In this document: one piece after another, positions 29,246 through 63,521 of the stretch | Position numbering within the stretch: position 1 is the first letter of the stretch | Layout of the letters: every line of letters starts with the position of its first letter | NCBI RefSeq assembly: GCF_011038975.1 | Contig: NZ_JAAKEC010000015.1 | Location: 18,501 to 82,500 of the forward strand | Source of the DNA: Adlercreutzia sp. ZJ176 | GTDB taxonomy: Bacteria; Actinomycetota; Coriobacteriia; Coriobacteriales; Eggerthellaceae | DNA length: 64,000 nucleotides | Direction of reading: 5' to 3' | Program-made: the position numbers and the translations under genes | Notes under the pieces: model-generated | What the model saw: the letters and a program-made list of their open reading frames with translations, nothing else | Database searches by the model: none | What the model was told of the DNA's origin: nothing

Positions 29246-29701
29246 ATGTCGAGCATCACCGATGGGTTCAGGGACGCGTTTCTCGCCGGCGTAGGGGCGG
29301 TGGCCATGGGCGCCGAGAAGTCGAAGGAGCTGGTCGAGCAGCTGATCGCGAAGGGTGAGATCACGGTTGACCAGGGGCGTCAGCTCAACGAGGAGCTCAA
29401 GCACCAGGCCGTCACGGTGACCGCGACCCTGCGCGAGGAGTCGATCGCCGCGCAGCTGTCGGCCATGACGGCGCAGGAGCGCGAGGCGTTCGCCGCCAAG
29501 GTGGCCGAGATGGCCGCCGCAGCCAACGCCAAGGACGCGCTCAAGGACGAGCCGGCTGACGCACCCGCGGCGCCCGAGCCCGCCGCCGCTGAGCCCGCGC
29601 CCGCCGCGCCCGCGCCCGCCGAGCCCGCGCCGGCCGAGCCCGCCGCCGAGCCCGCGCCCGCCGAGGCCGAAGCCCCGCAAGGGGAGGCGCCTGCCCAGTA
29701 G
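29246..29701 (+). CDS. Phasin-like small protein with Ala/Pro/Glu-rich tail
   Basis: MSSITDGFRDAFLAGVGAVAMGAEKSKELVEQLIAKGEITVDQGRQ resembles the phasin/DUF-type amphipathic family. GGAGG RBS. The tail consists of PAEPA repeats. Confidence 0.5.
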   Translation: MSSITDGFRDAFLAGVGAVAMGAEKSKELVEQLIAKGEITVDQGRQLNEELKHQAVTVTATLREESIAAQLSAMTAQEREAFAAKVAEMAAAANAKDALKDEPADAPAAPEPAAAEPAPAAPAPAEPAPAEPAAEPAPAEAEAPQGEAPAQ

Positions 29702-29713
29702 GCAGGCCTCCGC

Positions 29714-31366
29714 ATGGCTGACAACACGCTGCTCAAGTACATATTCAGCGAGCAGGTCGACGTGGACCCCGAGGGGCGCTTCGACCTGTCTCCCAAGACG
29801 CGCCGCGCGCGCATGGCCGAGATCCTGAAGATCGTGCGCAAGCACAAGCTCATGAGCTCGGTCACGCCCGAGGAGTTCCGCGCCATGCTCGAGGACCTGG
29901 GGCCCTCGTTCGTGAAGATCGGGCAGACGCTCTCCACGCGCTCCGAGATTCTCCCGCAGGCGTACTGCGACGAGCTCTCCAAGCTGCAGGCCGAGTGCGA
30001 GCCGCTTCCCTTCGCTGACATGCTCGCCGCACTCGACGCCGAGTACGGCGCGCGCCGCCCGGAGATCTTCGCCGAGATCGACCCCACGCCGCTCGGCAGC
30101 GCCAGCCTGGCTCAGGTGTACCGCGCGCGCCTGGCCTCGGGCGACCAGGTGGCGGTGAAGGTCCAGCGCCCGGGCGTGAAGGCCACCATGGCGCTCGACA
30201 TCGACATCATGCGCATGCTGGCGCGGCGGGCCTCGCACGTGATGAAGGACGACCAGTTCCTCGACTTGCGCGAGGTGGTCGAGGAGATGTGGCAGACGTT
30301 TCTGGAGGAGACGGACTTCCGCCGCGAGGCCGAGAACCTCGAGGAGTTCGCGCGCCTCAACGAGAAGTGCGTGTTCATCGGCTCGCCGCACGTGTATTCC
30401 GAGCTGTGCACCGAGTACGTGCTCGTCATGGAGTACGTCGAGGGCATCCCCATCAACCAGTCCGCGCGGCTTACCGCCGCAGGCTACGACCTCGAGGAGA
30501 TCGGCGTCAAGCTGCTCGACAACTACGCCACCCAAGTGCTCGACCACGGCTTCTTCCACGCTGACCCGCATCCGGGCAACCTCATCATCCGCGGCGGGCA
30601 GATCGTCTACATCGACCTGGGGATCATGGGGCGCCTGAGCGACCGCGACCGCGCGGGGTTCGCGGGCATCATCAAGGCGGTGGGCAACCATGACGCCGCC
30701 GAGCTCAAGGAGGCGCTCATCCGCTTCGCCATCCAGAAGGACAACTCCGCCATCGACCACACGCGCTTCCTCGCCGACCTCGACGGGCTTCTGGCCGACT
30801 ACGGCTCGGTCGGCATCAGCCAGATCGACGTGGGGAACATGCTCAACGACATCATGGCGCTCACGCGCTCGTGCCGCGTGATGCTGCCGAGCTCGGTGAC
30901 GAACGTGGCGCGCGGGCTGGTGACGGTGGAGGGCACGGTGGCCGCCTACATCGCCGACCAGAACATCGTGTCCATCATCAACGACCACCTCAAGCGCACG
31001 ACGGACACCTCCGAGATGCTCGCCTCGGCGCTGCAGGAACTCGCGCTCGCGCTGCGCGCGTCGGGCAAGGGGACGCTCGAGGCGTCGGCCTACGCGGGCG
31101 AGACGCTCAAGATGCTCACGCGCGGCCAGCTCAAGGTGAACATGGAGATGACCGGCTCCGACGAGCCCTTCCGCAAGCTGTCGAAGCTGTTCACGCGCGT
31201 GACCTTGGCGCTCATCGTGGCGGGGCTGTTCATGGGGTCGTCGATGCTGTCGCTGTCGTCGATGGAGCCGCGCGTGCTCGGCGTGCCCGTGCTCGCCGCC
31301 GTCGGCTACGTGAGCGCGTTTCTGCTGTCGGTCTGGATCGTGCTCGACATCTGGCGCCGGAAGTAG
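29714..31366 (+). CDS. ABC1/UbiB-family atypical protein kinase
   Basis: PLGSASLAQVYRARLASGDQVAVKVQRPG, HADPHPGNL, IDLGIMGRL, and two C-terminal TM segments. Confidence 0.85.
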   Translation: MADNTLLKYIFSEQVDVDPEGRFDLSPKTRRARMAEILKIVRKHKLMSSVTPEEFRAMLEDLGPSFVKIGQTLSTRSEILPQAYCDELSKLQAECEPLPFADMLAALDAEYGARRPEIFAEIDPTPLGSASLAQVYRARLASGDQVAVKVQRPGVKATMALDIDIMRMLARRASHVMKDDQFLDLREVVEEMWQTFLEETDFRREAENLEEFARLNEKCVFIGSPHVYSELCTEYVLVMEYVEGIPINQSARLTAAGYDLEEIGVKLLDNYATQVLDHGFFHADPHPGNLIIRGGQIVYIDLGIMGRLSDRDRAGFAGIIKAVGNHDAAELKEALIRFAIQKDNSAIDHTRFLADLDGLLADYGSVGISQIDVGNMLNDIMALTRSCRVMLPSSVTNVARGLVTVEGTVAAYIADQNIVSIINDHLKRTTDTSEMLASALQELALALRASGKGTLEASAYAGETLKMLTRGQLKVNMEMTGSDEPFRKLSKLFTRVTLALIVAGLFMGSSMLSLSSMEPRVLGVPVLAAVGYVSAFLLSVWIVLDIWRRK

Positions 31367-46420: not shown

Positions 46421-46589
46421 CTGCTCGCGGCAGCCGTCTGCCCTGATCGCACGCGGTTTTCTCGCCTCAAACTCCAGCAAATTTCCATAGCTCGTTAAAA
46501 TTTTCCTTGACACTGTGCCGGATTCATAATATCTTAATAAATTGCAACTTTTTGCAGATTTGCGATGCGCGTGAAGGAGGAAAAGCCTC

Positions 46590-50126
<3,537 letters not shown>

Positions 50127-50128
50127 AG

Positions 50129-54532
<4,404 letters not shown>

Positions 54533-54640: not shown

Positions 54641-54748
54641 GGGAGGCGGGGCGGTGCTCAGTCGCTCGAACAGTCCTGCTCGCGCGAAATGCCCGCTGGG
54701 CATTTCGGCTCGTGCGGAACTCGCTTGGTGAGCACCGCCCCGCCTCCC
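54641..54748 (+). other. Long-range RNA stem (20-bp arms) enclosing an inner hairpin, in the leader of the hisE-like gene
   Basis: gggaggcggggcggtgctca at 54641-54660 is the exact reverse complement of tgagcaccgccccgcctccc at 54729-54748. An inner hairpin cgaaatgcccgctgggcatttcg lies between the arms. Confidence 0.45.
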
Positions 54749-54778
54749 GCGACGGCAGGGTTTGACGAAGGAATGACT

Positions 54779-55198
54779 ATGGCGGTTAAGACCTATGTAC
54801 CCGAGGGCGAGGCGGTGCCCGCCTCGCAGATCGGCTCGACGCTCGAGGCGCTCGCGGCCACCATCGCGGCGCGCCGGGGCGCGGGCGCGGAGAGCTACAC
54901 GCACCAGCTTCTGTGCGGTGAGCTGGACCGGCCGCTGAAGAAGGTGGCCGAGGAGGCCGTCGAGGTGGGCCTCGCGGCGAAGGACGCCGACGCCGCCTGC
55001 GGGGCCGACCGCGACGCGGCGGTGGACCACCTGCGCTACGAGGCGGCTGACGTGGTATACCACCTGATGGTGGTTTTGGAGCGCTTCGGCATCTCGATCG
55101 ACGAGTTCGCCGCCGAGCTCAACAACCGCATGACCGACGCGGAGCGCCCTGCGGGCGCGGTCCGCTTGCACGACCGATATGTGAGAAGGGGAAAGTAA
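54779..55198 (+). CDS. Phosphoribosyl-ATP pyrophosphohydrolase-like (HisE/MazG-type all-alpha NTP-PPase)
   Basis: TLEALAATIAARRGAGAESYTHQLLCGELDRPLKKVAEEAVEVGLA...EAADVVYHLMVVLERFGISIDEF is the HisE fold. An alternative start lies at 54773. Confidence 0.7.
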   Translation: MAVKTYVPEGEAVPASQIGSTLEALAATIAARRGAGAESYTHQLLCGELDRPLKKVAEEAVEVGLAAKDADAACGADRDAAVDHLRYEAADVVYHLMVVLERFGISIDEFAAELNNRMTDAERPAGAVRLHDRYVRRGK

Positions 55199-56571
55199 TG
55201 GCCCGTCTTTTTGGAACTGACGGCGTTCGCGGCGTGGCGAACGTCGAGCTGACGAACGAGATCGCCTACCGCCTGGGGCAGGCGTCCGCCGAGTTTCTCG
55301 GCAAGACCATCGTGGTGGGCAAGGACACGCGCCTGTCGGGCGACATGCTCGAGGCGGCGCTCGTGGCCGGCATCACGAGCGCGGGCGGCACGGCGCTGCT
55401 CGCCGGCGTGATCCCCACGCCGGGCGTGGCGCTGCTGGTGCGCGAGCTCAACGCCGCGGGCGGCGTGGTCATCTCGGCCTCGCACAACCCGCCGGAGTAC
55501 AACGGCATCAAGCTCTTCGACGCCGAGGGCTTCAAGCTGCCCGACGCGGTGGAGGACGAGATCGAGGCGTTCATCACGGCGGGCGGCCTCGAGGGCCGCG
55601 TGGCGGCCGCGCGCGCGGCGGGCGATGAGGAGGCCGCGATGCCTTCTGGCCCCGACCTGGGCGTTGCCGTCGAGGTCGAGGACGCGTGCGAGATCTACGT
55701 GGAGCACGCGGTGCGCTCCATCGAGCGCCAGGGCATCAGCTTCGCCGGCATGACCATCGCGCTCGACACGGGGCACGGCGCCTCCTCGCTCACGAGCCCC
55801 GCGGCCCTCAAGCGCCTCGGCGCCGACGTGGTGGTCATCAACGACGACTACGACGGCACCGACATCAACGTGAAGTGCGGGAGCACCCACCTCGAGCCCC
55901 TGCGCGAGCTCATGGCGGAGAGCGGCGCCGACGTGGGCATCGCACACGACGGCGACGCCGACCGCGTGATGCTCATGACGCCGGCGGGCGACGAGATCGA
56001 CGGCGACATCGTGGAGGCCGTGTGCGCGCTCGACATGAAGGAGCGCGGCGCGCTCGCCGGCAACACGGCCGTGTCGACGGTGATGTGCAACCTCGGGTTC
56101 GTGCACGCCATGCGCGACGCCGGCATCGACGTGGTGCAGACCAAGGTGGGCGACCGCTACGTGCTCGAGGAGATGCGCGAGCACGGCTACGCCATCGGCG
56201 GCGAGCAGTCGGGGCACATGATCCTGCTCGAGCACAACTCCACGGGTGACGGCCTCATGACGGCCGTGCAGTTTCTGGCCGCGGTCAAGCGCTCGGGCAA
56301 GCCGGTCGAGGAGACCATCAAGGTCATGACGAAGTTCCCGCAGGTGCTCATCAACGTGCGCGTGAAGGACAAGCACGCGGTGGGCGAGAGCGCTCAGGTG
56401 GCCGAGGCCGTGGCGGCGGCGGAGGCCGCGCTCGGCGACGACGGCCGCGTGCTTCTGCGTCCCTCCGGCACCGAGCCGGTGGTGCGTGTGATGGTGGAGG
56501 CGCTCGACGAGGCCGCCGCCGACGAGCACGCGAAGGCGATCGCCGCCGTGGTCGCCAACGTGGAGGGCTAG
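55198..56571 (+). CDS. glmM: Phosphoglucosamine mutase
   Basis: MARLFGTDGVRGVAN...ISASHNPPEYNGIKLF...GIAHDGDADR...GGEQSGHMIL. Confidence 0.9.
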   Translation: MARLFGTDGVRGVANVELTNEIAYRLGQASAEFLGKTIVVGKDTRLSGDMLEAALVAGITSAGGTALLAGVIPTPGVALLVRELNAAGGVVISASHNPPEYNGIKLFDAEGFKLPDAVEDEIEAFITAGGLEGRVAAARAAGDEEAAMPSGPDLGVAVEVEDACEIYVEHAVRSIERQGISFAGMTIALDTGHGASSLTSPAALKRLGADVVVINDDYDGTDINVKCGSTHLEPLRELMAESGADVGIAHDGDADRVMLMTPAGDEIDGDIVEAVCALDMKERGALAGNTAVSTVMCNLGFVHAMRDAGIDVVQTKVGDRYVLEEMREHGYAIGGEQSGHMILLEHNSTGDGLMTAVQFLAAVKRSGKPVEETIKVMTKFPQVLINVRVKDKHAVGESAQVAEAVAAAEAALGDDGRVLLRPSGTEPVVRVMVEALDEAAADEHAKAIAAVVANVEG

Positions 56572-56851: not shown

Positions 56852-57214
56852 ATGACGCCTGCTGTTCTCGAGAAGCCGAGGTTCAACGTCGATCAGCTTA
56901 CTTCTGCCACTGAGGCGGCGAAGAGATTCTCCGAGGTGCGTAAACGCGCGAAGAAAGAACCCCAGTTCATAACGGATCGCAACGCGGTCGACTCCGTCAT
57001 CATGTCCTACGAAGAGTTCGAGGCCATGTACTGCGAACTTGCGGGCTACCGCGAGCGCGAGCTGCTCGCCGTCGCTGCCGCGCGCATCGCCGAGGGTGAC
57101 GCTGCCGCAGGTCGAGAGCGCGTCAGCTTGAAAGAAGCCATGGGCGAAGACGGCTACGCCGAGTACCTGGCCTGCGATGCTGACTCCATTTCCGACGAGG
57201 ATCTGTTCGAATGA
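56852..57214 (+). CDS. Phd/YefM-family antitoxin with acidic C-terminal extension
   Basis: QLTSATEAAKRFSEVRKRAKKEPQFITDRNAVDSVIMSYEEFEAM fits the Phd/YefM fold. GGAGGA RBS. Confidence 0.7.
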   Translation: MTPAVLEKPRFNVDQLTSATEAAKRFSEVRKRAKKEPQFITDRNAVDSVIMSYEEFEAMYCELAGYRERELLAVAAARIAEGDAAAGRERVSLKEAMGEDGYAEYLACDADSISDEDLFE

Positions 57215-57558
57215 GCGGCAGATTCCAGGTTGCTTTCTACAACGAAGCCGCCGCTAAGGAGTATCGCAAGCTCGATGGCTCGATGAAGAAGCTGGTCAAC
57301 ATAGCGCTCAAAAAGTTGGAGACGCGGGCTGACGAAATCGGCACCCCTCTTGAGCGGGAGTTGTCGGGCTGCAAGAAGATCAAATGGCGCAATGCCGGCC
57401 TTCGCATGGTGTTCAGAATCGTTGACGAGAAGACTGTTGAGGTCGTGGAGATAATTGCGATCGGGCAGCGCGACAACGAGCGAGTCTACAAGCTTGCAAC
57501 GCGCAGGTTCGAGACGCCTGGCGGCAGGATCGGGGTGGAAGGCGAGAGGCGCGCATGA
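57211..57558 (+). CDS. RelE/ParE-family toxin
   Basis: 115 aa. RNAGLRMVFRIVDEKTVEVVEIIAIGQRDNERVY fits the RelE/ParE C-terminal pattern. The start overlaps the antitoxin stop (ATGA). Confidence 0.65.
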   Translation: MSGRFQVAFYNEAAAKEYRKLDGSMKKLVNIALKKLETRADEIGTPLERELSGCKKIKWRNAGLRMVFRIVDEKTVEVVEIIAIGQRDNERVYKLATRRFETPGGRIGVEGERRA

Positions 57559-57600
57559 GAGAACTCGAGAGCATCCCGCTTGGCTTTGGCGGGAAGGGAA

Positions 57601-57628
57601 GGGCCCGGGATCGGATGATCCCGGGCCC
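57601..57628. terminator. Bidirectional hairpin terminator between convergent relE-like and ppk1 genes
   Basis: gggcccgggatc ggat gatcccgggccc; a perfect 12-bp stem. Confidence 0.6.
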
Positions 57629-57736
57629 TTCGTGCGTCAGGGGATAGATTGCGCGGCGCGCCCGCGGTGTTTCACGCGGCGCCCTCAGGGCGCGTCACTC
57701 CGAGGAGCGGCGCGCCCGCGCGCCCGCGGCCGCTCG

Positions 57737-60700
57737 CTACTTGCGCCTTCCCAGGGCGCCGAGCAGGCGGCTCAGGAGGCTGGGGCGCTTGGAGGGTCGG
57801 GGAGCCTCGCGGCGCGCCAGGGCGTTCTCGCGTGCCGCCTCGGCAGCCTGCTTGGCCGCGTCGGCTGCGGCGGTTCCGGCGCTGCGGGCTGCCTGGCGGG
57901 CCGCCCGCGCGGTGGTGCTCCGCGCGCTGCGCGCCGCGTCGGCCGCGCTGGCCCCCACCTGCTTGGCTGCGTCAGCCGCCACGCTGCCGGCCGACTTCGC
58001 CACGCTCGCGGCGACGCCTCCGGCGACGACGGCCGCGCTGCCCGCCGCGTGCGCCACGCTGGTGGCGGCGCTCCTCGCAGCCGCCTTGGCGTGCTCGATC
58101 TGCTCGGGGCTCGGTGCGGCCACGTGCACGCGCGTGCCTTCGCCGCCGAGCTCGCCGGGCATCTCGTCAGCTTCGTCAGAGGCGGCCCCGTCCTCGACGG
58201 GCGTGGCCTCGACGACGATCTCCTCGACGGCGGCCTCGACGCCCGGCGCGTCCGCGTCAGCTGCCGCGCCAGCTGCCGCGCCTGAGGCACCCGCGCCCGC
58301 GCCCGGCGCGCTCGCGCCAGCAGTCCCGGCGGCGATCCCGGCAGCCACGGTCCCCGCTGCGCCCACGGTTGCGCTCGCGACGCCGGCAGCCTCGCCGACG
58401 CTCATGAACACCTTCCCTGCCACCGTGGTGGCCTCGTCCTCGTCGATCGCGGGGGCGTCCACGAACTCGGACACCTCCTCGCCGAGGGGCTCGTGCGCGA
58501 ACGCGCGCCCGCCCACGCTTATGCGGTTGGCCTCGCGGTGCGCCTCGAGCTCGGCGGCGGCCAGGTGCTTGCGCTGCGCCTCGGCGATCAGGTAGTTCTG
58601 CGAGTCGAACAGGGGAGCGCCCGGCTCGGCGAAGTACCCGAGCTCGGTGTAGGCGCTCGTGGGCAGAAGCTCGCGCAGCTTGGCGGTGTCGCTCATGCAG
58701 GTGGCCAGGTAGCCGAGCACCTGGTCGCGCAAGTCGTTGTTCAGGATGGGCCAGGCGATCTCGATGCGCTTGTCCATGTTGCGCGTCATGAGGTCGGCGC
58801 TCGACAGGTACACCTTGCAGTTTTCGAGCGGGCCGAAGCAGTAGATGCGGCTGTGCTCGAGCAGACGGCCCACGATGGACACCACGCGCACGCGGTCGGT
58901 GAAGCCCTCCACGCCCGGCACGATGCAGCTGATGCCGCGCACGAACAGCGTGCAGTCGACGCCGGCCTGCGAGGCCTCGGCGATCTTGTCGATGACCTCC
59001 TTGTCGGTGACCGAGTTCGTCTTGAAGTACAGCCCGCAGGGCTCGCCCCGCCGCGCGAGCGCGATCTGCTCGTCGATCCCGGCGATGATGTTCTGCTTGA
59101 TCTGCAGTGGCGCCACCCACAGGATGTCGTAGCTGTCGGAGGCGTTCTCAAGCGCCATGTTGCGGAAGAACTGCACGGCGTCGCGCCCGATGGAGGGGTC
59201 GCTCGTGATGAAGGAGAAGTCGGTGTACAGGCGCGCCGTCTTCTCGTTGTAGTTGCCCGTGCCGAGCTGCGTGATGTGCTGCAGGCCGCCGTCGGTCTGG
59301 CGCGTGATGCAGCACACCTTCGAGTGCACCTTGAAGTCGCGGAAGCCGTAGATCACGTGGCATCCGGCCTGCTCGAAGCGCTGCGACCACTCGATGTTGT
59401 TGCTCTCGTCGAAGCGGGCGCGCAGCTCGAACAGCGCGGTGACCTCCTTGCCGGCCTCGGCCGCCGCGATGAGCGCCTCGGCGAGGTGCGAGTGGCTGGC
59501 CAGGCGGTACAGCGTGATCTTGATGGAGATCACCTTCGGGTCGGCCGCGGCCTCGCGCAGAAGCTGCACGAACGCGTCCATCGACTCGTAGGGGTAGGAC
59601 AGCAGCACCTCGCGCTCGCTCACCTGGTCGATGATGGGGCGGTTGCGGTCGAGGCATGCGGGCCACTGGGGCGTGAACGGCGTCTGCGCGAGCACCGCGC
59701 GCTTCTTCGCCGACACGCGGCCGGCGAGTCCCCAGGTGAAGCCGAGGTCGAGCGGCACCGAGGTCACGAACAGCTGGTGCTCCTTGAGCCCGAGCTTCTC
59801 GAGGAGGAGGGGCTTCACGATGCTCGACAGCTCGCGCTCGCTCTCGAGGCGCACCGGCGCCAGGCGCGAGCGCTTCTTCAGGATGCGCTTCATGTGCTCG
59901 CGGTAGTCGTCGCCCTGCTCGTCGGCGCCCTCGGTGGCGTCGAGGTCGGCGTTGCGCGTCACGCAGATCACGTTGGTGTGCTTCACCTTGTACATGGAGA
60001 ACACCTCGGCGGCGTACATCTCGATCGCGTGCTCGAGCAGGATGAACGAGGTCCCCTTGCCCGGCAGCTGCACCACGCGGTCGCACTGGCGCGGCAGCGG
60101 GATGAGGCCGAGCGTCACGCCCTCGGCGCCGAGGTCCTTGGTGGCGCGCGCCTCGCGGGCGGCCTCCTTCGCCGCGGCCTTCCCGGCCTTGTCGGCCTTC
60201 GGGTCCTTCGCGCGGGACTTCTTGTCCTTCTTCGGCAGCGCGCGCTCGTCGAGGCGCACCACGATGTAGAGCGCGCCGTTCTCGAGGTGGGGGAAGGGGT
60301 GGCGCGCGTTGATGATCTGCGGCGAGAGGAACGGCATGACCTGGGCGTGCACGTAGTCGTCAAGGTAGGAGCGCTGGTCGTCGGTGAGGTCGGCGGCGCG
60401 CACGTTCTCGATGCCCTCGGCGGCGAGCTGGGCGCGCAGGTCCTCGTAGGTGCGCTCGTAGTACGGGTAGAGCTCGTGGCAGCGCGCGTAGATGGCGTCG
60501 AGCTGCTCGGCGGGCGTCATGCCCGACTTCGAGTCGATGATCGACTTCTTGACCAATGCGAGGTCGGTCAGGCTGCCGACGCGTACCATGAAGAACTCCT
60601 GGAGGTTGCTCCAGAAGATGGAGATGAAGTTCAGGCGGTCGAGCAGGGGCACGGTGGCGTCAGCGCCCTGGTCGAGCACGCGCTTGTTGAAGGCGAGCCA

Positions 60701-60757
60701 GGACAGTTCACGGTTCTGCATGTAGGGGAGTCTGAGGGGTGCGACGTTACGGTCCAT
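57737..60757 (-). CDS. ppk: Polyphosphate kinase 1 with ~320-aa Ala-rich C-terminal extension
   Basis: PPK1 N, H, C1 and C2 domains (YMQNRELSWLAFNKRVLDQG...FISIFWSNLQEFFMVRVG...two PLD-like HKD regions). Then the low-complexity tail AAGIAAGTAGASAPGAGA...AADAAKQ...AARSARS. Confidence 0.9.
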   Translation of the reverse strand: MDRNVAPLRLPYMQNRELSWLAFNKRVLDQGADATVPLLDRLNFISIFWSNLQEFFMVRVGSLTDLALVKKSIIDSKSGMTPAEQLDAIYARCHELYPYYERTYEDLRAQLAAEGIENVRAADLTDDQRSYLDDYVHAQVMPFLSPQIINARHPFPHLENGALYIVVRLDERALPKKDKKSRAKDPKADKAGKAAAKEAAREARATKDLGAEGVTLGLIPLPRQCDRVVQLPGKGTSFILLEHAIEMYAAEVFSMYKVKHTNVICVTRNADLDATEGADEQGDDYREHMKRILKKRSRLAPVRLESERELSSIVKPLLLEKLGLKEHQLFVTSVPLDLGFTWGLAGRVSAKKRAVLAQTPFTPQWPACLDRNRPIIDQVSEREVLLSYPYESMDAFVQLLREAAADPKVISIKITLYRLASHSHLAEALIAAAEAGKEVTALFELRARFDESNNIEWSQRFEQAGCHVIYGFRDFKVHSKVCCITRQTDGGLQHITQLGTGNYNEKTARLYTDFSFITSDPSIGRDAVQFFRNMALENASDSYDILWVAPLQIKQNIIAGIDEQIALARRGEPCGLYFKTNSVTDKEVIDKIAEASQAGVDCTLFVRGISCIVPGVEGFTDRVRVVSIVGRLLEHSRIYCFGPLENCKVYLSSADLMTRNMDKRIEIAWPILNNDLRDQVLGYLATCMSDTAKLRELLPTSAYTELGYFAEPGAPLFDSQNYLIAEAQRKHLAAAELEAHREANRISVGGRAFAHEPLGEEVSEFVDAPAIDEDEATTVAGKVFMSVGEAAGVASATVGAAGTVAAGIAAGTAGASAPGAGAGASGAAAGAAADADAPGVEAAVEEIVVEATPVEDGAASDEADEMPGELGGEGTRVHVAAPSPEQIEHAKAAARSAATSVAHAAGSAAVVAGGVAASVAKSAGSVAADAAKQVGASAADAARSARSTTARAARQAARSAGTAAADAAKQAAEAARENALARREAPRPSKRPSLLSRLLGALGRRK

Positions 60758-60853
60758 TGCATCTCGCTTTCTCTTTGTGGGGGCGACGGCATGCGTGCGC
60801 AAGGCGCGCAAGCGTCAAAGGGCTTGGGGCGCGCCAGGGAAGCCTCGAAAAGC

Positions 60854-61922: not shown

Positions 61923-63521
61923 ATGCTTGAGAAAGTCGACTTCAGCCAAAAGCCCCTGACGAAGGAAGCGTACAAGCAGGACTATGACGAGCTCGTCGAC
62001 CGCTTGGTGGTGCTCCAGCAGCAGGCGCGCGAGAAGGGCGTGGGCCTGGTGGTGCTGTTCGAGGGATGGAACGGCGCGGGCAAGGGCAGCCGCATCTCCG
62101 ACCTCATGTACAACCTCGACGCGCGTGCGACCAGCGTGTACGTGGCGTCTGACGTGGACGCGTCCAAGGTGCGCGACTTCCCCGGGCGCTCGAACGGCGT
62201 GTCGGACTACTTCCCGCTCATGCAGGAGTACTGGCAGGCGCTCGGCGAGCGCGGCGCCATCACGTTCTACGACCGCGGCTGGTACACCAAGGCCACGCAG
62301 CGCATGCTCGCGCGCACGGCGGGAGAGCTCCTGCATCCGCGCGAGGGCGCGCGCCACTACCTCGAGCCCATCCGCGACTTCGAGCGCCAGCTCGTAAGCG
62401 ACGGCTACGTGGTGGTGAAGTTCTTCGTCCACGTGACGAAGAAGGCCCAGCGCAAGCGCCTCGAGCGCCTCTATGACGACCCGGCCACGCGCTGGCGCGC
62501 GCCCGAGAAGAAGCTCGCCAGCACGCGCAGCTACGAGGACCAGTACGAGCTGTACGACCGCCTGCTCGAGGGCAGCAACTTCGACTTCGCGCCGTGGGTG
62601 CTCGTGAACGGCGAGGACAAGCGCGCCGCCAACCTGTCCATTGCGCGCACGCTCGTGACGGCCTTCGAGGATGCGCTCGCCCGCAAGGCGCACCGGGACA
62701 AGCAGGCCGTCCCCGCGGTGGAGCCCGACACCCCGCCCGCGGAGGCCGCGCGCATCCAGCACGCGTTCGCGCCGGCGGCCTCGCGCTTCGCCATCGTGGC
62801 CGACTACCCGCAGGTTGACACCATCGACCACACGCTCGCCCTCGAGCGCGACGAGTACAAGTGCGAGCTCAAGAGGCTGCAGAAGCGCCTGTTCCGCCTG
62901 GAGAACATGATGTACCAGGCGCGCATCCCGCTGATCATCATGTACGAGGGCTGGGACGCCGCCGGCAAGGGCGGCAACATCAAGCGCGTGGCCCAAGCGC
63001 TCGATGCGCGCGCCTACACCATCTTCCCGAGCCCCGCGCCCACGAAGTTCGAGCTGGCCCACCCGCATCTGTGGCGCTACTGGACGCGCCTCCCCAAGGC
63101 AGGGCACGTGGGCATGTACGACCGCTCGTGGTACGGGCGCGTGCTGGTGGAGCGCGTGGAGGGCTTCGCCACGCCCGAGCAGTGGTCACGCGCCTACGAC
63201 GAGATCAACGAGTTCGAGCACGACCTGTTCGACTGGGGCGCCATCCTGCTGAAGTTCTGGGTCGACGTGAGCCCCGAGGAGCAGCTGCGCCGCTTCGAGG
63301 CGCGCGCGGCCGATCCCTCCAAGCAGTGGAAGATCACGCCGGACGACTGGCGCAACCGCGAGAAGTACCCGCAGTACAAGAGCGCCATCGACGACATGTT
63401 CCGCCTGACCTCGACCACCTACGCCCCCTGGGTGGTCCTCGAGAGCGACAACAAGCTCCACGCCCGCGTGAAGGCCCTGCGCACCATCGTTGACGCCTTG
63501 GAGGATCGCTTGGGAAAGTAG
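61923..63521 (+). CDS. Two-domain polyphosphate kinase 2 (polyphosphate:AMP/NDP phosphotransferase, PAP-like)
   Basis: Two PPK2 P-loop modules (VLFEGWNGAGKGSRIS and IIMYEGWDAAGKGGNIKRV), each with its lid region. Divergent from ppx-ppk1. Confidence 0.85.
   Translation: MLEKVDFSQKPLTKEAYKQDYDELVDRLVVLQQQAREKGVGLVVLFEGWNGAGKGSRISDLMYNLDARATSVYVASDVDASKVRDFPGRSNGVSDYFPLMQEYWQALGERGAITFYDRGWYTKATQRMLARTAGELLHPREGARHYLEPIRDFERQLVSDGYVVVKFFVHVTKKAQRKRLERLYDDPATRWRAPEKKLASTRSYEDQYELYDRLLEGSNFDFAPWVLVNGEDKRAANLSIARTLVTAFEDALARKAHRDKQAVPAVEPDTPPAEAARIQHAFAPAASRFAIVADYPQVDTIDHTLALERDEYKCELKRLQKRLFRLENMMYQARIPLIIMYEGWDAAGKGGNIKRVAQALDARAYTIFPSPAPTKFELAHPHLWRYWTRLPKAGHVGMYDRSWYGRVLVERVEGFATPEQWSRAYDEINEFEHDLFDWGAILLKFWVDVSPEEQLRRFEARAADPSKQWKITPDDWRNREKYPQYKSAIDDMFRLTSTTYAPWVVLESDNKLHARVKALRTIVDALEDRLGK

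Follow-up and report, generated by a model that had tools for sequence, protein, structure and literature searches.

Polyphosphate kinase 1 (PPK1), the enzyme of polyphosphate (polyP) synthesis, exists as a dimer in the crystal and as a tetramer in solution. In its canonical form, represented by the enzymes of E. coli (1XDO, 687 aa) and P. gingivalis (2O8R), it comprises a four-domain core that carries a catalytic-histidine motif. The E. coli enzyme was originally described as membrane-located, reportedly by Akiyama et al. in 1992. The ppk1 gene considered here lies in a stretch of 64,000 nucleotides from Adlercreutzia sp. ZJ176 (contig NZ_JAAKEC010000015.1, positions 18,501 to 82,500), the whole of which is referred to as the window. 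Its product has the core and the histidine motif in common with the canonical enzymes but has 33 additional, Lys-rich residues inserted into the head domain and, at the C-terminus, an extension, or tail, of 261 residues. On balance, this tail is probably a localisation device, in which a disordered leash ends in a terminal membrane anchor of the MinD/FtsA type.

How and where polyP granules nucleate in bacteria is unsettled. For E. coli, PPK1 has been described as membrane-associated, for Caulobacter as granule-associated, and the Caulobacter tail is the sole one mapped. The tail of Caulobacter crescentus Ppk1 is a strongly basic sequence of 22 residues with a pI of 11.8, which is placed directly past the core, after the C2 domain, and is lacking from E. 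coli PPK (Henry & Crosson 2013, PMC3806658). Both normal granule production and the colocalisation of the enzyme with granules depend on it, making it a demonstrated localisation determinant in that organism. The query tail resembles it in ending in a short, strongly basic sequence after C2. The Caulobacter tail differs in having no long leash, and it targets granules near the nucleoid. In the full-text literature, coverage of which is incomplete, this was the only tail retrieved for PPK1 in connection with an amphipathic helix, a membrane-targeting sequence, a disordered region or a C-terminal extension. Nothing relevant was retrieved for Eggerthella and polyP, which, given the same coverage, is absence of evidence only.

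The second system to which the tail can be compared is the membrane-targeting sequence (MTS) of the division proteins MinD and FtsA. A single copy of the MinD MTS is weak, dimerisation raises its affinity and it can be transplanted to other proteins (PMC8155659). The PPK1 terminus is like these sequences in its position at the extreme C-terminus, its length of 10–16 residues, its hydrophobic residues at i, i+1, i+4, i+5 and i+8, its Lys/Arg flanks and the flexible segment that precedes it. A weak single copy that is offset by oligomerisation is plausibly the logic common to both. Unlike MinD and FtsA, which belong to the ParA and actin families, the carrier here is a metabolic enzyme, its linker is far longer (up to ~500 residues), there is no evidence of a nucleotide switch for the PPK1 tail and membrane binding is only predicted.

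The extension is an integral part of Eggerthellaceae PPK1

Residue numbers in what follows are those of the 1006-aa protein that begins at the ATG at 60757, and base coordinates are those of the window. The open reading frame (ORF) contains the four Pfam domains of PPK1 in order and far above their cutoffs (PP_kinase_N, middle, C_1 and C; PF13089, PF02503, PF17941 and PF13090), corresponding to the N, H, C1 and C2 domains, and these end at ORF residue 723. The NCBIfam model TIGR03705, with a cutoff of 465.85 bits, scores 704.3. The catalytic-histidine motif of the query, FKVHSKV, is matched by LKIHAKL in the alignment to a solved PPK1, and H478, S479 and K480 do not vary among 42 relatives. 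The histidine in FKVHSK is presumably the equivalent of H435 in E. coli PPK. Solved PPK1s (683–705 aa) match query residues 15–166 and 222–696 (E ~1e-100), with ~35 residues remaining beyond, and the NCBIfam PPK1 profiles reach ORF residues 742–760, or 724–742 of the 1006-aa protein, the longest of them ending at 738–742. Because profiles and structures extend to approximately 742–745, the extension is taken to start near residue 746 (window 58522) and to span ~261 aa. The first-pass annotation of this DNA, which was made from the sequence alone, had assigned ~320 aa to the tail; its span, to 58660, takes in ~46 residues of the C2 domain, and the extension proper occupies 57740..58522. The Ala-rich peptide and the basic end that it quoted (AADAAKQVGASAADAARS...AAEAAREN and ...PSKRPSLLSRLLGALGRRK) are present verbatim in the translation.

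The best match to the protein is the PPK1 of Adlercreutzia sp. ZJ242, which is 95% identical and 1001 aa long. Together with 119 sequences from Adlercreutzia, Gordonibacter and other Eggerthellaceae it makes up the best 120 homologues, most of which are 840–1270 aa in length. A tail is present and fused in all 120 (median 182 aa and maximum 523, measured from the core end), and the few that fall below ~60 aa are truncated or partial sequences. A survey of the family at one genome per species covered 80 loci, 74 of them with a complete ppk1, in genera including Adlercreutzia, Gordonibacter, Enteroscipio, Rubneribacter, Raoultibacter, Ellagibacter, Slackia, Senegalimassilia, Paraeggerthella and Parvibacter. 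An in-frame tail is found in each of the 74 complete genes, where it is fused in every case (57–523 aa, median 128).

The first-pass annotation had named two findings that would detach the tail from PPK1, a frameshift that fuses ppk1 to an unrelated ORF and orthologues in which the tail is a separate gene. As the tail is fused in every homologue examined, it is neither. The architecture of core and tail is kept in 74 species, and no separate tail gene was seen in any of the 120 homologues or 74 complete loci. The GC content of third codon positions (GC3) in the ppk1 frame is 0.78–0.96 and this is kept through the tail. Plus-strand ORFs that lie over the tail, such as 57648..58595, were rejected as antisense shadow frames of a gene with a GC3 of ~0.9, and their products are nonsense sequences rich in Arg, Cys and Ser. 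The tail is a genuine, family-wide part of Eggerthellaceae PPK1.

All of these proteins are annotated as plain “polyphosphate kinase 1”, and the domain databases are blind to their tails. At E≤1, Pfam returned only a chance-level SseC match for the query tail, NCBIfam returned no match past the end of PPK1 and Pfam returned no additional domain for full-length members of the subclade to which the query belongs. A homology search with the tail alone was uninformative, low complexity having swamped the word index: none of 8000 word-sharing candidates scored.

A conserved basic amphipathic helix forms the C-terminus

The end of the protein is the most amphipathic segment of the tail. The 11-residue window LLSRLLGALGR has a hydrophobic moment (µH, Fauchere-Pliska scale) of 0.68, which is the highest in the tail, the net charge over the last 21 residues is +7 and AlphaFold2 predicts a helix at residues 994–1005. 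Among the high-GC3 ORFs of the window, PPK1 has the sole C-terminus that combines such a moment with strong positive charge. The first-pass annotation had noted a “basic tail” at this point; basic it is, but the description undervalued what is also the conserved element of the extension.

The terminal motif is present in 70 of the 74 species and ends 0–4 residues before the stop codon. The 60 distinct anchored termini from these 70 species give the consensus P-[KR]-K-P-[SG]-ΦΦxRΦΦ[GSA]xΦΦ[RK]. Here, positions 0, 1, 4 and 5 are hydrophobic in 90–100% of the termini and positions 8 and 9 in 48–65% (~81% and ~62%, respectively, where the residue is present). Position +3 is Arg in 53 of the 60 (88%; basic in 90%), the other basic positions are -4, -3, +7 and +10, and acidic residues are almost absent. 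The last ~20 residues of motif-bearing tails have a net charge of +3 to +9. Examples are KRPSLLSRLLGALGRRK (the query), KKLGFFGRLLKLLFG, KKGNFLTRLLKKLFG, GNAITRFFRRLFGK, RKPSLLVRILSKFVR, KKRGFFARLFGK and KKSFFKRLFG. The µH of variant termini is 0.5–0.8, in agreement with known MTSs, and in nearly all non-redundant tails the terminal 11-mer exceeds every tail-body window; most of the exceptions are truncated contigs. As 70 of the 74 species share the terminal motif despite linkers that cannot be aligned, the frame is read to its end and that end is under selection. Its conservation makes the terminal segment probably functional.

Two features expected of an MTS are found. The helix occupies the extreme C-terminus behind a flexible segment, seen as a Pro-rich hinge and a linker with low confidence in the structure prediction, and it has a bulky hydrophobic face with a basic flank. 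Known MTS peptides have a µH of 0.41–0.69. The MTS that MinD carries in E. coli, KKGFLKRLFGG, is close to KKSFFKRLFG, to KKRGFFARLFGK and to KKKSWLKRLFG, the last from a distant PPK1.

Among individual tails, that of L020, a Parvibacter metagenome-assembled genome, has a Pro/Ser/Arg/Cys-rich end that looks frameshifted, which is possibly an assembly error or a pseudogene. Both this tail and that of L028, a second related locus, are complete but without the terminal helix.

A long, acidic and disordered linker precedes the helix

The region between the core and the Ala-rich block described below has a net charge of ~-21, distributed over three blocks, and AlphaFold2 gives residues 749–882 a predicted local distance difference test score (pLDDT) below 50. 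As the model of the query is mediocre overall (mean pLDDT 62, from a shallow alignment of 42 close relatives), it is used solely to set ordered regions apart from disordered ones. Across genera, tail bodies are of low complexity (Ala/Pro/Gly/Glu), net acidic and unalignable. They also evolve faster than the core: identity with the homologue P0001 is 88% in the tail and 98% in the core, and with P0002 it is 47% and 83%, respectively.

One short element within the linker is conserved in part of the family. The EEVSEF sequence of the query has the family form (T)EE(E/V)SE(F/Y)V, which occurs in 74 of 119 tails, 13–36 residues past the core, and only in the Adlercreutzia-like clade. AlphaFold2 does not dock this motif on the PPK1 core.

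Terminal helices occur on other PPK1s

A wider search, of 1.8 billion cluster representatives, shows that PPK1s with 48% identity to the query or less are mostly of canonical length (670–740 aa). Many of these distant proteins end in the same manner, with sequences such as KKKSWLKRLFG, PLGLWGRFKKFFGF, KTFMQRLKYVLFGKF and KHGFFWRIFHK. In the set around one of them, P0134, the closest relatives that carry a name are Coriobacteriales and Coriobacteriia, and after these come Clostridia, Oscillospiraceae and Eubacteriaceae. With a terminal helix defined as an 11-mer with µH ≥0.5 and net charge ≥+2, it is present in 74% of 110 non-redundant PPK1s of this set, compared to 6.5% of random internal 20-mers. 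Most of these PPK1s are only 700–730 aa long. What is peculiar to the Eggerthellaceae is the long leash and not the terminal helix.

The model of one such protein, P0362 (Oscillospiraceae, 719 aa), was built from a deeper alignment and has a mean pLDDT of 88.7. Its core ends near residue 684, residues 685–703 are unstructured and a helix follows at 704–715 with a pLDDT of ~55. The unstructured segment and the low pLDDT mean that the terminal helix is not predicted to pack on the core. In a few relatives the helix is replaced. P0128 and P0274 have a transmembrane-like segment in the C-terminal tail, followed by ~26 polar residues, and in P0156 such a segment is the very C-terminus.

Further basic amphipathic ends of near-canonical PPK1s (P0301–P0419 and P0130–P0269), which come from Clostridia, Oscillospiraceae, Eubacteriaceae and Coriobacteriales, include GGFFTRLFARWRKK and LKSRWKRLFGGKS. 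Among ten distant PPK1s with a tail, the one with a taxonomic name belongs to Olsenella/Atopobiaceae.

The Ala-rich repeat block is confined to one subclade

Between the linker and the hinge, the query tail contains a block of which 45% is Ala (residues 884–983), predicted as two long helices (884–923 and 925–983) with a pLDDT of 54–75. Over residues 901–985, the spectra of Ala and of the polar residues each have their peak at a period of 3.7 residues, which none of 500 shuffles reached. The first-pass annotation had described heptad-like, amphipathic helical repeats. The helical periodicity is significant, but the period is 3.7 (11/3) and not the 3.5 of a heptad coiled coil, which is rejected. 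A workable 11-mer register is ASVAKSAGSVA / ADAAKQVGASA / ADAARSARSTT / ARAARQAARSA, with one Lys or Arg per repeat. The amphipathicity is weak, as the apolar face consists of Ala, Gly and Val and the µH does not exceed 0.33 in 18-residue windows.

Both the 11/3 periodicity and the predicted long helix are shared with the 11-mer proteins, which include apolipoproteins, alpha-synuclein, group-3 LEA proteins and perilipins. Differing from these and from phasins, the block has no family match, an apolar face of small residues and a distribution limited to the subclade made up of the query, P0001–3, P0005, P0006, P0008 and P0023, in which the periodicity has z = 4–6.4. The linkers of other Eggerthellaceae genera are Pro/Ala/Glu-rich and non-periodic. 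The repeats match no phasin, apolipoprotein, LEA or CHAD family in Pfam, NCBIfam or the PDB, and in particular neither the Phasin profiles (PF05597 and PF09361) nor the CHAD “phosin” profile finds the tail. The substantial hydrophobic face of apolipoproteins, alpha-synuclein and LEA_4 is missing as well. A PDB sequence search with the block gave nothing beyond one designed helical repeat (E=0.87), and BLASTP between the tail and the phasin-like ORF at 29246 gave E=14, which is no similarity.

At the DNA level, the tail contains weak direct repeats (62–86%, spaced by 54–111 nt). As these are weak, recent duplication of DNA is not the source of the repeats in the protein. Tandem Repeats Finder returned only trivial GC-rich micro-repeats from the tail DNA.

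Probable membrane tethering and its alternatives

The elements described above can be assembled into a mechanism in which each part of the tail would have a separate role. The long, net-acidic and disordered segment would be a leash, free to drift in both length (57–523 aa) and sequence. Behind the Pro/Lys hinge, the ~13–16-residue basic amphipathic helix would serve as the anchor, an MTS of the MinD/FtsA type. Its Leu/Phe/Ile face (i, i+1, i+4, i+5, i+8 and i+9) would enter the cytoplasmic leaflet to a shallow depth, with the flanking Arg and Lys residues binding anionic phospholipids. As PPK1 is oligomeric, it is plausible that several weak helices per oligomer would provide avidity. The enzyme may then be kept in a cortical zone, its acidic leash repelled by both the membrane and polyP, and its core still mobile and able to roam within some tens of nm of the membrane. 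In the subclade of the query, the leash has turned into an Ala-rich, basic, 11-periodic helix over its last ~100 residues, and this helix may add a surface contact or act as a stalk.

Three points together favour the membrane as the probable target of the terminal helix: the MinD and PPK literature, the transmembrane-like segments that occasionally stand in its place and the dominant conservation of the hydrophobic positions. Localisation of PPK1, to membrane or granules, had been suggested in the first-pass annotation, and it is the best-supported of the putative functions. Several points weigh against the membrane as the target, binding to which is a prediction from sequence. The only characterised PPK1 tail, that of Caulobacter, targets granules and not the membrane, and by analogy the basic helix could bind polyP. 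Confidence in the terminal helix of the query is low (pLDDT ~55–58), in a model that is itself mediocre and derived from few sequences. In addition, four complete tails (L009, L020, L043 and L045) have no terminal motif, with three of these still ending in related basic peptides that contain FF or W.

Granule targeting in the manner of Caulobacter is unlikely, yet it is the main alternative. Here, the basic C-terminal peptide would bind the granule or a protein on its surface and so hold PPK1 there as the granule grows, and the leash would allow the core to sweep that surface. In favour of this, the query has a short and strongly basic sequence past C2 that has no counterpart in E. coli PPK or in any of the solved PPK1s matched, the charge of +3 to +9 is retained throughout motif-bearing tails, and the Lys-rich head insertion of this clade could bind polyP. 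Electrostatic binding of polyP does not need bulky hydrophobic residues, however, and these are the best conserved positions of the motif. The transmembrane-like segments of some relatives and a net-acidic linker, which polyP would repel, fit poorly as well. Also improbable is a docking or regulatory peptide, in which the helix would bind a partner, which could be PPX, PPK2, a protein of the cytoskeleton or of division or, with the helix as a cargo peptide, the shell of a microcompartment or encapsulin, or fold back on PPK1 to control oligomerisation or activity. Short amphipathic C-terminal helices on flexible linkers are also the format of the peptides for encapsulation in microcompartments and of many docking motifs, and the second conserved motif of the Adlercreutzia clade, in its (T)EEESE(F/Y)V form, resembles a linear binding motif. 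AlphaFold2 leaves the helix unpacked on the core even in the well-modelled P0362, however, no co-varying partner gene was seen in the loci examined, and the strong positive charge and MinD-like sequence suit lipid binding better.

The proposal of the first-pass annotation, that the Ala-rich repeats form a coat like those of phasins or apolipoproteins, was based on their helical pattern. Over ~85 residues the periodicity of Ala versus polar residues is indeed significant, it is generally known as the period of apolipoprotein, alpha-synuclein and LEA 11-mers, and the block is conserved within its subclade and predicted as a long helix. As the main function of the tail, a coat over a granule or lipid surface is nevertheless very unlikely, since most Eggerthellaceae tails lack the block, its apolar face is small with a low hydrophobic moment and neither known families, the PDB nor the local phasin-like ORF resemble it. 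At best, it is a lineage-specific embellishment. That the tail has no function, whether as a neutral, low-complexity stretch read through in a genome of high GC content or as an artefact of assembly or a frameshift, is scarcely credible. The GC content of 76–77% between 57500 and 58500, the shadow ORFs that stay open on the opposite strand and the fast evolution of tail bodies are what such a sequence would show. It would not reach the same end motif in the same frame in 70 of 74 species whose linkers cannot be aligned, and for the terminal helix this explanation is effectively refuted.

If membrane tethering is the function of the terminal helix, its distribution suggests a wider role. As a tentative proposal that falls somewhat short of probable, the MinD-like helix may be a widespread, undescribed PPK1 module of Gram-positive anaerobes (Coriobacteriia, Clostridia and relatives) that tethers polyP synthesis to the membrane, with an acidic leash of 60–520 residues inserted in the Eggerthellaceae and, in one subclade, an additional Ala-rich helix of 11-mers. 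If so, the length of the leash would set the distance from the membrane at which granules are built, and the old association of PPK with the membrane would have an account at the level of sequence. The anchor peptide, being conserved and seemingly transplantable, provides a simple, testable handle on the location of PPK1. The family concerned includes the medically relevant gut bacteria Eggerthella, Gordonibacter and Adlercreutzia. As PPKs are used for ATP regeneration in biocatalysis, trimming or keeping the tail could also affect solubility.

Features of the locus and neighbouring genes

Table 1. Features of the ppk1 locus, in window coordinates
Feature	Position	Strand	Basis or remark
Long ORF holding ppk1	57737..60811	-	ORF list and translation
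ppk1 coding sequence, 1006 aa and stop, probable start ATG 60757 (MDRNVAPL...)	57737..60757	-	ORF list, translation
Catalytic PPK1 core, residues 1–745	58523..60757	-	NCBIfam profiles, alignment to solved structures
Lys-rich head (H) domain insertion PKKDKKSRAKDPKADKAGKAAAKEAAREARATKD, ~33 extra residues, ~11 K/R per 30	60095..60259	-	Includes a few flanking conserved residues
Disordered, net-acidic linker rich in Ala/Gly/Glu/Asp, residues 746–883	58109..58522	-	Composition, AlphaFold2
Acidic-aromatic motif EEVSEF, residues 760–765	58463..58480	-	Inside the linker
Ala-rich, net-basic helical block, residues 884–983	57809..58108	-	11-residue periodicity, AlphaFold2 helices
Pro/Lys/Arg hinge EAPRPSKRPS, residues 984–993	57779..57808	-	Low pLDDT; consensus P-[KR]-K-P-[SG] before the helix
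Basic amphipathic helix LLSRLLGALGRRK, residues 994–1006, putative membrane-targeting sequence	57740..57778	-	µH, conservation
ppx, exopolyphosphatase, 308 aa	60854..61780	-	Pfam Ppx-GppA; 97 nt upstream of ppk1
PPK2 with two domains, 532 aa, divergent from ppx	61923..63521	+	Pfam PPK2 twice
Phd/YefM antitoxin and weak ParE-like toxin, 4-nt overlap	56852..57558	+	PF02604, E=2.6e-7; toxin E=0.011

The features of the locus are collected in Table 1. The insertion in the head domain has no counterpart in the solved PPK1s, whose alignment to the query splits at 166/222, and its pLDDT is low. The spacing of the motifs that flank it has a median of 103 in Eggerthellaceae-like PPK1s and 70 in distant representatives. 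The insertion is specific to the former and is missing from the latter, including those that bear a tail. It could bind polyP or anionic lipids.

The first-pass annotation placed ppk1 in a co-located set for polyP synthesis, utilisation and degradation, with ppx upstream on the same strand and a divergent two-domain PPK2. Pfam identifies both neighbours, and the set is real, made up of ordinary genes and kept across loci of the family. The top NCBIfam match of ppx, TIGR03706, scores 190.6 bits and is under its cutoff of 307, and that of PPK2, TIGR03708 (polyphosphate:AMP phosphotransferase), scores 513.8 bits, just under 547.65. Of the 80 related loci, 55 have ppx upstream on the same strand, 45 have a divergent ppk2 upstream and 38 combine the two arrangements. 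In nine loci, which belong to a mouse-associated clade of Adlercreutzia, ppk2 is downstream of ppk1. The order in E. coli is ppk-ppx, whereas that of the query is ppx-ppk1 with a divergent ppk2.

A scan for terminators downstream of ppk1 found none by the T-run rule. A perfect, GC-rich hairpin, GGGCCCGGGATC...GATCCCGGGCCC (57600..57632, as read on the minus strand), is located between the convergent ppk1 and ParE-like genes. It was missed by the consensus scan because it has no T-run, and it may be a bidirectional terminator. The toxin–antitoxin pair, convergent with the 3' end of ppk1, lies in an island of low GC (0.58, compared to ~0.69 around it) and is probably a mobile insertion.

Farther from ppk1, the phasin-like gene that the first-pass annotation had pointed to at 29246 exists as an ORF, although its Pfam Phasin match is sub-threshold (E=0.0018). 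It encodes 151 aa with an Ala/Pro/Glu-rich C-terminal tail and lies directly upstream of an ABC1/UbiB-type atypical kinase gene (29246..31366, plus strand, for the two). The kinase (PF03109, 3.7e-70) has a hydrophobic, transmembrane-like C-terminus, and the two genes are apparently a pair with no relation to polyP. At 54689..56571, also on the plus strand, a PRA-PH/MazG-like pyrophosphohydrolase gene (PF01503) is immediately followed by a four-domain gene of the phosphoglucomutase/phosphomannomutase family (GlmM-like). This pair is preceded by two very long ORFs at 46575..54532.

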